This document shows positions 19,784 through 38,786 of a stretch of 41,735 bases of DNA, one piece after another. The stretch comes from a virus: the UHGV virus genome UHGV-1359735; one strand, written 5' to 3'. The stretch's first letter is position 1. Every line of letters begins with the position of its first letter. The position numbers and the translations under genes are program-made. The notes beneath the pieces were generated by a model. That model worked only from the letters and a program-made list of their open reading frames with translations, did no database searches and was not told where the DNA came from.

Positions 19784-19874
19784 ATTTACAACCCATTTCC
19801 CTTGTGCCATAGTGATCAGGCATCGGCAAAATCCGGTGCCGGGATTGGCGTCCCGGATAACTAAACGGCGCACA

Positions 19875-19898
19875 ACACGCGCACTGCGTGTTTTTTTG
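19875..19898 (+). terminator. Intrinsic terminator in the ant leader
   Basis: ACACGC-gcact-GCGTGT stem-loop followed by TTTTTTT, about 100 nt downstream of the ant promoter/operator and ~150 nt before the ant start. Confidence 0.55.
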
Positions 19899-20050
19899 TG
19901 CACGCGCTCTGACGCACCTATCCAATGGTGGGCTGGGCGGGGGTCCGAAAGGACGCCGGTATCCGTTTAGGCCGGTACGCCAACTCCGTTCAGTTCACCA
20001 CCAGTAATTGGCGTTGCGGTGGTGATAACTCTACTAAGCGGGGTATCACA

Positions 20051-35475: not shown

Positions 35476-35781
35476 CTATTCCTCGCTGGCCTCTTTGGCC
35501 ATTGCCAGATACTGATCGGGACACGCCTCCATCACGTCGGAAAAGACTTTCAGTCCCGTGTTACGTTTTCCTTCGGCGAAGGCTGCCGAGAGCGCCTCAC
35601 CGGTATAAGTCGTACGCCACACCCCAGCCTGCTCAATCAGGCGCCAGATGAAACGGCGGCCGTGTTCTGTCTCGCAGATGAGGCGCAGGTCATTAAGTTC
35701 GTTCTCGCGCCGTAACTGCTGCCTTTTGAGCTCATCTGCTGCCAGTTCTTCACGCTCTTCTTCGCTCAGGTAATCAGTCAT
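35476..35781 (-). CDS. Hypothetical protein (101 aa)
   Basis: ATGA overlap with the portal stop. Confidence 0.45.
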   Translation of the reverse strand: MTDYLSEEEREELAADELKRQQLRRENELNDLRLICETEHGRRFIWRLIEQAGVWRTTYTGEALSAAFAEGKRNTGLKVFSDVMEACPDQYLAMAKEASEE

Positions 35782-37457
35782 TGCGTCACCGCCGGCTGCT
35801 GAGCAGCATCAGAGAGGGTTTTTAACAGGCTAGGGTCAGCGGTGTTGGTATCGCTCAGGGTCTTAGCGGTTGCGCCAGCTTGCTGGGCCATAGCCATCAT
35901 CTGCTGCTGCTGCTCCATTTGAGCACGCTGCTCGCGCGTAGCTTGCACCTCATCATCAGAGTTAACGATCGTGGCCGGGACGCCGAGCATATTTCCGTAC
36001 TCGTCAATCGTCTGGTCGATATTGAGTTTGTCGAGCGCCGCAGGATTGGCTTTTGCAAGATTCCCAACAAAGCCAACAAAGCGCTCTACGCTGCTGATCC
36101 CTATGGATTTTTGGGCCTGTGCCAAAATGGATACATATTCAACTTTCAAAGGAGTGCCCTGCAGTTCTTCCGGTGGCTCAGGAAAGAGGTTGCGGCGCGC
36201 CATGATGTTGAATGTGCGATCAACGAAAGGATCAAGGAATTCATCATTAAGTCGCTCAAGAACTGGGCCAAGCTGCAGGAGTTTCTCATCCTGCATTGCG
36301 GCCACAGCTTCCACTGGCATGCTCCTGGTGTTGATGGTGCTGAACAGGTTAAACAGGTCAGAGAAGAAGCAGGCTTCAATCATTTGGCGGTCATCAGCAA
36401 TACTGCCGAGCATGTCATTAAGCTGCGGGCTGACGGCGTAAGCCGGACGCACTAGCTTGGTAGCATCAACCTCATCGACATAAGTAACTCCGCCAGGGGC
36501 AAGGTTGATCAGCTTATTTTTAAGACCTGTCGGGGCCACCATTGGCGGGTTAACAAGCTTATCGATCGCGTTAGCTTTGCGAATTTGCTCCAGCTGCAGC
36601 GCCTTACCAGTACCGAGCGCCATCATTCCCGGGCAGTTACTCCCGTAAACGTCTTCCCCGTTAATCTCCCAGCGCGGTGAAAGGATCGGCGGCTCATCAA
36701 AACCAGCCTCCCGAAGAAGCTTGTCACCGTCTCCTGACAACTCGAAATACACCGATTTGAATGCCTTGTTGCGGGAGTTCAGCTTGCCATTCACACGATC
36801 GATATTGGGCTCTGTCAGATGGACCACATCGAACCATGCTTCATAGTTCGCGTTATCCCAGGCGCCGCGCACGGCGTTACTGACATTGTCCAGGCCAAAC
36901 TGCATAACAATCTGGCGGGCAGTCATGGAGAAAACGCGATACGTGGTATCGACTGACAAACGATGCGAGTTTGACAGGTAGTAACTTCCGATCGGCAGAG
37001 GATGAGTACGAATCACATCTTCGTCGTCTTCGAGAACCGCCATAGCCGCGGTACCAAAAACACCAAGGTGCCGGTAGATAATCGGCAGGGACTGGTAGAC
37101 GTTAGAGCGGTTCATGACGTCGTTCATCCTGGTCATGACCACATCAAGCCAGCGTTTTACCGGTCCATATTGCATCATCTCCGGATCCGGCGTTGCCAGC
37201 TTAAACCATGGGCGGGTTGGGCTGGTGATACCTGACAGCATGCCTGATTGCAGAGTGCGGGCAGCTTTGGAGGCGGTAGGGTCAACGATGCGGGTATTAC
37301 GCTTGCTGCCGTTGTTTCTCTCCGTCGTAAGAAAGCGCGTGCTGCGCGGATCAATAAATTCCGCCAGTTCGCGCCAGTGCTCCTCAAAGCTGGTGCGCTC
37401 ATTTTTGAGCTGCCCCAGGTGTTTGAGGTAATGCTGTTTCGGAGAGAGTTCGGCCAT
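35778..37457 (-). CDS. Portal (head-to-tail connector) protein, T7 gp8-like
   Basis: 559 aa; motifs PWFKLATPDPEMM...YGPVKRWLDVVMTRMNDVM and a Q/A-rich C-terminal tail resemble the podovirus head-tail connector family. Confidence 0.8.
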   Translation of the reverse strand: MAELSPKQHYLKHLGQLKNERTSFEEHWRELAEFIDPRSTRFLTTERNNGSKRNTRIVDPTASKAARTLQSGMLSGITSPTRPWFKLATPDPEMMQYGPVKRWLDVVMTRMNDVMNRSNVYQSLPIIYRHLGVFGTAAMAVLEDDEDVIRTHPLPIGSYYLSNSHRLSVDTTYRVFSMTARQIVMQFGLDNVSNAVRGAWDNANYEAWFDVVHLTEPNIDRVNGKLNSRNKAFKSVYFELSGDGDKLLREAGFDEPPILSPRWEINGEDVYGSNCPGMMALGTGKALQLEQIRKANAIDKLVNPPMVAPTGLKNKLINLAPGGVTYVDEVDATKLVRPAYAVSPQLNDMLGSIADDRQMIEACFFSDLFNLFSTINTRSMPVEAVAAMQDEKLLQLGPVLERLNDEFLDPFVDRTFNIMARRNLFPEPPEELQGTPLKVEYVSILAQAQKSIGISSVERFVGFVGNLAKANPAALDKLNIDQTIDEYGNMLGVPATIVNSDDEVQATREQRAQMEQQQQMMAMAQQAGATAKTLSDTNTADPSLLKTLSDAAQQPAVTQ

Positions 37458-37679: not shown

Positions 37680-37755
37680 ACGCGTTTAAATTATTACCAA
37701 TTTAACCACATATAATTTATTTGTCGTAGTGTATTGACCTTTTGATGATAAATTA

Positions 37756-37770
37756 TTACCTTTTTGGTAA
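37756..37770. promoter_or_regulatory. Operator-like palindrome TTACCtttttGGTAA (with degenerate copy at 37694-37708)
   Basis: Perfect copy between the portal operon and the ORF-free region; TTGACC at 37734-37739 lies upstream. Confidence 0.5.
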
Positions 37771-38083
37771 ACACAACATGAAAGCGCACCCCATTCCCTT
37801 CCATTGGTGGCTTTGTCGTTACTCAGATGGCGGAGTGCGCTTCCAGGTGTGAAAGCATCCGGCGTATGGCACATGCGTCGATAGCGGTCCGGGGGCTCCT
37901 TGGTACATGGCCCAGCGGGTAGCCGGAATGTGCAAGCCATGCCATGCATGCACGACAGCGACTCACCATCGTGGCGGTACGGTGTGACACCTCGGAAGAG
38001 ACGAGGATGCAACGATGAGAGCATTGGCGGAAGCAACGCCTCCCTCGCCGGGTGGTCCACTGTGGTAATCAGTGCTCTCTTCG

Positions 38084-38198
38084 TTGTGGTTAGCTCAGGA
38101 ATTGGTTAGAGCTCCATCCATGCTTGCCATTGCTGCATGGGCGGGTAATGGGTTCCGAAAGGATCGCCGCGCCGGTTGGAATCCGGCACCACAACCCA
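38084..38198 (+). ncRNA. tRNA-like element (non-canonical) inside an ORF-free region
   Basis: Acceptor 5' strand TTGTGGT (38084-38090); D-arm GCTC-aggaattggtta-GAGC (38093-38112); T-arm GCCGG-ttggaat-CCGGC (38171-38187); acceptor 3' strand ACCACAA + C + CCA (38188-38198). But 58 nt separate the D- and T-arms, containing a 6-bp stem CCATGC/GCATGG and GGTTCCGAAAGG. Confidence 0.35.
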
Positions 38199-38242
38199 AT
38201 CACACCTCAGGACCGTGATACCCGTAGTTCCAGTGCAAGTTT

Positions 38243-38284
38243 GGCGGTGGCAGTTATTCCCTTTCTGACCACCGCCATTTTTAC
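38243..38284 (+). terminator. Intrinsic terminator ending the ORF-free transcript
   Basis: GGCGGTGGCAG ... CTGACCACCGCC stem followed by ATTTTTAC. Confidence 0.55.
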
Positions 38285-38366
38285 AGCAGGACGCCATTGC
38301 GATGACTTCATGCTGTAAACCCTGTGACACCCAGCCAAGGACGGCACTTTCCATCATCCCTGTTTC

Positions 38367-38392
38367 GCCCGGTTCGTCCGGGCATTTTTTTT
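38367..38392 (+). terminator. Strong intrinsic terminator 17 nt upstream of the gp49-like gene
   Basis: GCCCGG-ttcgt-CCGGGC followed by ATTTTTTTT. Confidence 0.7.
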
Positions 38393-38408
38393 AAGGTGAG
38401 ATTAGACT

Positions 38409-38786
38409 ATGAGTGACAAAGACATTGAATCTGAAATTCAGGCTAAAGGCTTAACGGCGCCGCGCGTTACGCCCAACCATATCGAAAGCATTATTGCCAG
38501 CGAGCATTACTTCACTGGCTCTGATGGTGTACTGGGTGCCTACAAAAACAACGATGACGTTTACGTTGGCAGCGCACCTAGCGATAAATCCGTACGGTCT
38601 TTAGATTTGATTACCTTCTGTGTCCTGGTGCTTCAAAACGGCTTCACCGTCACCGGTGAAAGCGCCTGCGCCAGTCCTGAAAACTTCGACCCTGAAATCG
38701 GACGTAAGATTGCCCGTGAAAATGCGGTAAATAAAATCTGGATGCTGGAAGGTTACCTGCTGAAGCAGAGACTGAGCGAAAAATAA
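38409..38786 (+). CDS. Hypothetical protein (125 aa), possibly phage Gp49/Sf6-gp66-like family
   Basis: AAGGTGAG SD; opposite strand to the late operon; followed by a terminator; family assignment from memory only. Confidence 0.5.
   Translation: MSDKDIESEIQAKGLTAPRVTPNHIESIIASEHYFTGSDGVLGAYKNNDDVYVGSAPSDKSVRSLDLITFCVLVLQNGFTVTGESACASPENFDPEIGRKIARENAVNKIWMLEGYLLKQRLSEK

Follow-up and report, generated by a model that had tools for sequence, protein, structure and literature searches.

The 41,735-nt viral genome UHGV-1359735 (the window) belongs to an epsilon15/phiV10-like (Uetakevirus-type) phage or prophage, and between its portal and terminase genes it carries a non-coding locus on the plus strand. 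The centre of this locus is a double-pseudoknot core of approximately 150 nt (37860-38006), which marks a large RNA family not described before that unrelated enterobacterial phages carry as a mobile cassette. The initial annotation had described 37771-38400 as a GC-rich region without open reading frames (ORFs) holding a tRNA-like module, but it overlooked the main feature, namely that 37860-38088 (230 nt) is a member of a large RNA family supported by covariation. The reading preferred here, held with moderate confidence, is that positions 37770-38284 form one non-coding transcription unit of approximately 515 nt and that its product would be a discrete early RNA acting in trans, with ends set by tRNA-processing enzymes. 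In the modelled order, the composite RNA would consist of a leader hairpin (P0), the two-pseudoknot core, a long helix (P6), a tRNA-like domain (P7), a small hairpin and an intrinsic terminator (T1).

The structure of the core was derived from alignments, and its pairing was tested on 28 homologues that are at most 95% identical in any pair. Its four helices are P1 (37860-64 x 37876-80), P2 (37888-92 x 37915-19), which closes a variable hairpin, P3 (37958-62 x 37968-72) and P5 (37990-94 x 38002-06, loop GAAGAGA), and all of them show compensatory changes. The same is true of pseudoknot B, in which the P3 loop CACC (37964-67) pairs with GGUG (37981-84). Pseudoknot A, between the P1 loop GCACAU (37869-74) and AUGUGC (37928-33), is predicted purely from the invariance and complementarity of its two strands. 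The core also contains the invariant stretch GGUAGCCGGAAUGUGCAAG (37918-36) and a variable hairpin at 37937-57. Across the 28 sequences 95.2% of cells pair, and both sides have changed in 14 of the 30 pairs; none of 500 shuffles reaches any of these measures, and slid controls pair in 28-47% of cells. The base of P2 is a U.G pair in every one of the 28 sequences, and other G.U pairs are invariant or frequent, so the RNA lies on the plus strand. A covariance model of the core (R1) scores 142.8 bits in the window (E = 4e-45) and finds one copy there and one in each related locus searched; the R1 search returned no second copy near PR or elsewhere in the window. Covarying secondary structure, which the initial annotation had proposed to look for, is present in the core upstream of the tRNA-like module.

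Known families do not account for the core. Searches of Rfam 15, both at gathering thresholds and at E<=10, gave no match on the core in the window, in the homologous locus of E. coli O157 typing phage 9 (L002) or in 13 other loci, and the weak matches that did appear (RyhB, SorX, asX2 and DicF) were driven by terminators only. One of these concerns the T1 hairpin region (38228-38277), which aligns weakly to DicF and shares UUUGGCGGU and CAGUU with it; the DicF small RNA (RF00039) was rejected as an identification, scoring 19.4 bits against a gathering threshold of 48 and being absent from the L002 homologue. The prophage small RNAs Pas, AgvB and AsxR were set aside as unrelated loci. A full-text literature search for the conserved core motifs found no paper containing them, and the invariant 19-mer has no antisense target in the window with up to three mismatches allowed.

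Immediately downstream of the core, the long helix P6 (38009-38088) joins GCAACGAUGAGAGCAUU (38009-25) to AGUGCUCUCUUCGUUGUG (38071-88) around a variable insert (38026-70), with a folding energy of -37.4 kcal/mol (z = -4.0). RNAduplex recovers P6 in most variants, and compensating variants occur in five loci (L023, L042, L080, L108 and L121). The stretch of 310 nt that precedes the tRNA slot shows blockwise conservation. Two short GC hairpins had been singled out in the initial annotation: CCTCG-gaagaga-CGAGG (37990-38006) is the conserved, compensated P5, whereas GGCG-gaagcaa-CGCC lies in the P6 insert, which is not conserved. In an Stx-type lambdoid (L005, 2609-2693) the P6 insert holds two T-loop-like hairpins, CUGGUUCAAUUCCAG and CCGUUCGAUUCGG, which are motifs of the tRNA-elbow type within the RNA. 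Longer, multi-module versions of approximately 650 nt were also seen (L078 at about 2180-2830, L252 and L256), in which a second module of the P5-P6 type or an additional, divergent domain separates the core from the tRNA-like domain. Shuffling of modules seems to have taken place at CAAC / GUUGUGG junctions, and P0 of the window opens with one of these (ACACAAC-AUGAAAGCGCAC).

The core was found with blastn in "distant" mode in 153 phage records, where the aligned part is the central 110-170 nt of the 310 nt before the tRNA slot and where it is almost always unannotated. These records are of four unrelated kinds: Uetakevirus (epsilon15-like) phages; lambdoids, including mEp390, mEp460, 2H10 and Stx2a- and Stx2c-converting phages; Jedunavirus myophages of Klebsiella; and the P1-like phages SJ46 and D6. 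At least 120 IMG/VR stretches contain the invariant 15-mer GGTAGCCGGAATGTG, and 80 IMG/VR loci were examined, four being left out as lacking the element. Among complete E. coli genomes the core is present in 1990 of 5426 (37%), at 2588 places, of which 206 are on plasmids. The 40 E. coli places among the matches listed all lack annotation, and across all listed matches with annotated records the core is unannotated, apart from a few "hypothetical protein" calls.

The genomic contexts differ among the four kinds of phage. In lambdoids the order is cro (minus), cI (plus), a terminator, a promoter with the operator motifs of OR, and then the core; since it carries these motifs, the promoter is PL, and the core is the first element transcribed from it. 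No N-like gene was found among the first downstream ORFs of ten lambdoid loci checked, and phage lambda, which has N and nutL, lacks the core. In some lambdoid loci a reverse-oriented gene with a bidirectional terminator follows directly after P5. Locus L058 has a terminator directly after P6. The Jedunavirus Geezett has a free-standing unit of approximately 515 nt with its own promoter (TTGACA-17-AATTAT) and terminator, flanked by baseplate genes to which it is antisense. P1-like phages have the core within an operon, between tRNA-Met(CAU) and ban. In a set of 124 oriented loci, all tRNAs up to 2 kb away share the strand of the RNA; tRNA-Arg adjoins P6 in 25 of these loci, and in 16 a tRNA-Met(CAU) precedes the core by approximately 15-20 nt. 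Of 111 distinct loci, 94 have an intrinsic terminator on the strand of the RNA, mostly between +135 and +700; the other epsilon15-like loci listed also have a counterpart of T1 behind the RNA, +278 to +325 counted from the core motif. The distance from the inferred start to the terminator is approximately 515-530 nt in the window, in Stx-type lambdoids and in Jedunavirus, by our own estimate from the sequences. No constant phage protein neighbour of the RNA was seen across the contexts inspected.

The tRNA-like domain P7 occupies 116 nt (38083-38198). The initial annotation had placed a tRNA-like element at 38084-38198, and its coordinates prove exact in tRNA numbering, with canonical acceptor, D-arm, T-arm and CCA. 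The acceptor stem has 7 bp (38084-90 x 38188-94), the D-arm spans 38093-38112 with the stem GCUC/GAGC and with U8 and A9 present, the T-arm (38171-87) has a 5-bp stem, and C73 (38195) is followed by CCA (38196-98). Thus the 7-bp acceptor, U8, D-arm, 5-bp T-stem and N73-CCA of a canonical tRNA are all there, and the 5-bp anticodon stem with a 7-nt loop is missing. In its place lie 57 nt (38114-70), compared with 22 nt in a tRNA, which fold as two hairpins, a stem of 6-9 bp with an 11-nt loop and a second hairpin, and contain no anticodon loop. The oversized anticodon region of the initial annotation is therefore real, at 57 nt and not the 58 claimed. The tRNA searches recommended there did not call the element: ARAGORN reported no tRNA or tmRNA in the window and nine relatives, and Rfam gave P7 no match at E<=10 in the window and none at the gathering threshold in the relatives, the positive control for the Rfam tRNA model, the tRNA-Arg of L002, scoring 73 bits. 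With G-1 at 38083, P7 has a G-1:C73 layout that we take to resemble that of tRNA-His. The GUUGU at 38083-87 can pair either with the base of P6 or with the 3' strand of the acceptor stem, the two being mutually exclusive.

In sister phages the same slot, between the same flanks, is filled by a canonical tRNA-Arg(UCU). The tRNA-Arg(UCU) of epsilon15-like (Uetakevirus) phages and P7 have a nearly identical D-arm and share CGUUGUGG upstream and AAUCAC..GUGAU downstream. P7 differs from it in the 57 nt that replace the anticodon arm and variable loop, in its acceptor stem, and in having C73 with G-1. A second tRNA mimic occupies the slot in L102, where the Rfam tRNA model scores 43.9 bits over 127 nt, and further relatives have a minihelix made of an acceptor-like stem and a hairpin, closed by GUUGUGG/CCACAAC. 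This makes four kinds of occupant for the slot, namely tRNA-Arg, two distinct tRNA mimics and the minihelix. In every version a small hairpin, AUCAC-(ACCUCAGGACC)-GUGAU (38199-38219 in the window), follows directly after the tRNA or tRNA-like domain.

This replacement of a tRNA-Arg could be taken to mean that the element is a decayed tRNA-Arg and that the rest of the region is drifting intergenic DNA, as the initial annotation had allowed. The tRNA-Arg slot, the rejection by ARAGORN and Rfam, and a mutation in the T-loop of the window are what this explanation would predict. A 20-mer from the odd region of P7 retrieved nine IMG/VR contigs with the domain (L249-L257), and in these P7 is 97-100% identical while the core, the P6 insert and the flanks diverge. 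One of them (L253) has a compensatory stem change from G-C to U-A, and all nine have the T-loop UUCGAAU; the window alone reads UUGGAAU (G38178 in place of C56), and its copy of P7 may be impaired. Since the 116-nt domain is conserved in nine contigs despite diverged flanks, and given the strongly covarying core upstream, decay is contradicted and is considered very improbable.

Still less probable, and in our judgement hardly credible, is a Y-RNA/YrlA-like tRNA mimic that would tether the Ro (Rsr) protein. D and T arms with an insert foreign to tRNA are indeed present, and GGUUCCGAAAGG vaguely recalls GGUCCGA, but this segment folds as a plain CC-GAAA-GG hairpin. In the predicted fold of P7 the 5' and 3' ends meet in the acceptor stem, the arrangement of an ordinary tRNA; YrlA RNAs have both ends in the Ro-binding stem, the reverse of the P7 layout. 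The Y_RNA and YrlA models of Rfam gave no match at E<=10 in the window and none at gathering thresholds in the relatives, so the proposal that GGTTCCGAAAGG is a Y-RNA/YrlA motif found no support. Of the phage-encoded structured non-coding RNA suggested in the initial annotation, what stands is a non-coding, plus-strand, structured RNA with a tRNA-like module and terminators; kinship with Y-RNA/YrlA falls away.

The non-coding character of 37771-38400 was confirmed. Four six-frame ORFs in the region have no Pfam-like support, and their frame is not kept in relatives. The sole six-frame ORF with a match is antisense (38106-38357, minus strand, 83 aa) and matches phrog_4647, a PHROG of unknown function. 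Its start, frame and length (27-110 aa) all vary among relatives, and its C-terminal half is the reverse complement of the tRNA-Arg or tRNA-like domain; it is therefore likely an annotation artefact. The phrog_4647 "family" itself appears to have been assembled from spurious ORFs over the non-coding locus, whose C-termini correspond to a tRNA read in reverse complement, and the "hypothetical proteins" called over the RNA in phiV10, ZX5, mEp390 and TL-2011b are probably artefacts of the same kind. Alignments of the region with relatives contain indels of 1, 2, 6, 18 and 35 nt, and no ORF is conserved in frame in homologous phages, where an intact protein gene would have pointed to a pseudogene. 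A hidden protein gene was rejected on the unstable frame, start and length of the ORFs and on these indels.

The elements that would bound the transcript are as follows. A promoter-like site, TTGACC (37734-39) and TACCTT (37757-62) with a 17-nt spacer (37734-37762, plus strand), puts the probable transcription start at approximately 37770. It is invariant in relatives, yet it falls under the cut-off of a consensus scanner, so the operator/promoter that the initial annotation set at 37734-37770 has conservation on its side and not the scanner. The divergent promoter region contains AAATTATTACC twice, as an 11-nt direct repeat (37688-98 and 37750-60) that is likewise invariant in relatives; its second copy overlaps the -10 element of the RNA promoter, and the repeat looks like a putative operator of a regulator. 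Directly after the start, the leader hairpin P0 (37772-37851) pairs CACAACAUGAAAGCGCAC (37772-89) with GUGCGCUUCCAGGUGUG (37835-51), with a folding energy of -29.3 kcal/mol (z = -2.4). It is a long helix of the kind of P6, and its sequence module sits elsewhere in L012-type loci. Terminator T1 (38243-38284) pairs GGCGGUGG (38243-50) with CCACCGCC (38269-76), followed by A and U5, and has a free energy of -20.4 in the terminator scan; it is likely the 3' end of the primary transcript of approximately 515 nt. A second intrinsic terminator, T2 (38367-38392), consists of GCCCGG-uucgu-CCGGGC and the T-rich tail ATTTTTTTT. Both terminators reported in the initial annotation were thus recovered by fold and scan as a GC-rich hairpin with a U-tract.

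T2 ends 17 nt before the start codon at 38409 of a gene of the N4 gp49 / Sf6 gp66 family (38409-38786, plus strand; Pfam PF13876, E = 1e-34), which is convergent with the terminase genes, and a promoter scan found no promoter-like site between T1 and this start codon. The order of promoter, structured RNA, two terminators and gene raises the possibility of a regulatory leader, a riboswitch or attenuator in which the RNA would respond to a ligand or factor and thereby control termination at T1/T2 ahead of the gp49-like gene; the two mutually exclusive partners of GUUGU (38083-87) could be read in the same way. Against such a leader, approximately 150 nt (the tRNA or mimic and the small hairpin) separate the core from T1, no alternative pairing that overlaps a terminator was found, other genes occupy the slot of the gp49-like gene in relatives, and the core is also found without a co-oriented gene downstream. 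The leader with tandem attenuators of the initial annotation therefore fits the order of elements but leaves the free-standing copies with their own promoter and terminator unexplained, and we regard it as improbable.

The discrete RNA preferred here would be a gene product in its own right (promoter, RNA, terminator), beyond a mere leader. The free-standing copies with promoter and terminator favour it, as do the usual presence of a terminator after the RNA and the conserved unit length. Host tRNA-processing enzymes would cut the transcript, with RNase P probably cleaving just 5' of the tRNA or its mimic; this would release a stable structured RNA of approximately 310 nt and a tRNA-like RNA. 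The four tRNA-shaped solutions in one slot and the co-orientation of neighbouring tRNAs with the RNA favour ends set in this way. Expression would be early in lytic growth, from a repressor-controlled promoter, a proposal made because the promoter upstream of the lambdoid core bears operator motifs of the OR type. Action in trans is favoured since no phage protein gene accompanies the RNA across the contexts inspected; its partner would be a conserved host component, our leading guess being the machinery of transcription elongation and termination.

Several observations weigh against this reading. The C56-to-G change in the T-loop of the window bears on RNase P cleavage. In P1-like phages the core sits inside an operon that runs from the tRNA to ban, without its own promoter or terminator. 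In many lambdoids the core comes first after PL, which is the nutL/putL position, and several lambdoid loci have no terminator by the criteria used, with no N-like gene downstream in the 10 checked. This lambdoid pattern would fit a cis-acting leader at least as well.

The same pattern is the starting point for a different explanation, in which the core is a cis-acting processive antiterminator RNA, functionally like the put sites of HK022/HK639 (or EAR) and structurally unrelated to them. It would fold co-transcriptionally, stay on RNA polymerase and bring about read-through of T1, T2 and later terminators. The repressor-controlled PL of lambdoids transcribes the core first, at the position of lambda nutL and of the "putL-like antiterminator RNA" annotated in HK639; the first downstream ORFs are not N-like in 10 loci, and the lambda immunity region, with N and nutL, has no core. 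Moreover, the RNA is often separated from the early-left genes by a strong hairpin with a U-tract or by a reverse gene that has a bidirectional terminator, and in the window the gp49-like gene stands behind two terminators with no promoter between. On the other side, a promoter of its own and a conserved intrinsic terminator bound the Jedunavirus RNA, which points antisense into tail genes. In the window a terminator-proof polymerase would run antisense into the terminase genes, and three plus-strand terminators block the way. There is no second copy of the core near PR, model R1 finds nothing in HK022 and HK639, and similarity to putL/putR is not significant (p = 0.06-0.8). An antiterminator is the main alternative to the preferred reading, which we rate as possible and rather unlikely. 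The corresponding broader proposal is equally doubtful: that the core represents a second, structurally unrelated class of RNA-only antiterminator at nutL/putL of N-less lambdoids, and hence in roughly one in three complete E. coli genomes, and that the cassette was borrowed by other phages, its 3' end being set by a tRNA or mimic.

The put RNA causes terminator read-through in cis and is blocked by rpoC mutations in the zinc-binding domain. Like the put sites of HK022/HK639, the core is a nascent structured RNA directly downstream of PL in N-less lambdoids; position behind an early promoter of an N-less lambdoid is found in the lambdoid relatives and does not apply to the phage type of the window. 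The core and HK022 putL share ACGGCG...CAUGCGUCG. Unlike the core, put has approximately 70 nt and two stem-loops, and free-standing copies with a terminator are a property of the core. Membership of the put family was rejected: the 9-nt identity CAUGCGUCG with putL is no better than shuffled controls give, putR lacks it, and R1 is blank on HK022/HK639. The HK022 putL position used here was derived by us from the record L008 and the numbering in PMC9378689, as it is not annotated in the record. The putL-like RNA of HK639 (L258, 34187-34312) is homologous to HK022 putL and not to the core; the same record carries an "M3-like RNA" at 37910-37969, downstream of cII. P5, a 5-bp hairpin with a GAAGA(GA) loop, is in our assumption similar to lambda boxB, and many P6 3' strands contain UGCUCUUU, which we take to resemble rrn boxA, followed by GUUGUGG, which presumably resembles boxC. 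Unlike boxA in rrn or nut sites, the boxA-like strand forms one side of helix P6, where compensating variants occur, and reads UGCUCUCUU in the window; unlike lambda nut, the core has no N gene with it.

Association of an ornate phage RNA with tRNAs has precedents. ROOL and GOLLD are phage RNAs "often near tRNA islands", and tRNAs sometimes lie within the GOLLD linker (PMC12286853). Like them, the core RNA is phage-borne, structured with pseudoknots, and adjoins or incorporates a tRNA or mimic. It differs in size, with a core of 150 nt and a full RNA of approximately 0.3-0.65 kb, and in its occurrence in phages of Enterobacteriaceae only (in the phage and E. coli collections); membership of ROOL/GOLLD was rejected, there being no Rfam match. 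Among smaller RNAs, RNase P processes the precursors of phage P1 C4 and P4 CI RNA and releases mascRNA from MALAT1. As in those precursors, a tRNA-shaped module stands directly 3' of a structured RNA, whose 3' end RNase P would make; mascRNA, C4 and CI have no sequence relationship to P7. Elsewhere in the window, isrK (Rfam, 80 bits; 19820-19896) lies beside a C4 antisense RNA (66 bits; 19921-20005). This is an immunity RNA pair of the P1/P7 type elsewhere in the prophage, and such a pair also adjoins the immunity region of Stx2a_WGPS2 (L005, 128-316, minus strand).

The surroundings of the locus in the window complete the picture. Its nearest relatives over the locus are the Klebsiella phages ST512-KPC3phi13.3 and BUCT711, at 98% identity. 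The minus-strand side holds the portal gene (35778-37457, PF12236) and a gene of 72 aa, and with the order terS-terL-[locus, opposite strand]-portal the locus looks like an independently transcribed insert, as far as gene order can tell. The segment between the terminators (38285-38366) contains the invariant 32-nt block GACGCCATTGCGATGACTTCATGCTGTAAACC (38289-38320) in the alignment of relatives and is non-coding because of a 1-nt indel among them. The block is better conserved than its surroundings, and immediately 5' of it BUCT711 has an insertion of approximately 270 bp that includes a small ORF.

Others have remarked that N-less lambdoids lack a known early antiterminator (PMC12315714). 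If the readings advanced here are true, a covarying two-pseudoknot RNA has escaped annotation in 37% of complete E. coli genomes, as well as in Klebsiella phages and in phages of the Stx-converting, epsilon15-like and P1-like kinds, and it would be a candidate for the expression of the early-left operon in N-less lambdoids, the gap noted in that work. Several "hypothetical proteins", and probably at least one PHROG, are likely artefacts of annotating this locus. At a fixed slot, tRNA mimics substitute for a real tRNA, and the RNA would offer an enterobacterial, genetically tractable case of the link between ornate phage RNAs and tRNAs known from ROOL and GOLLD.

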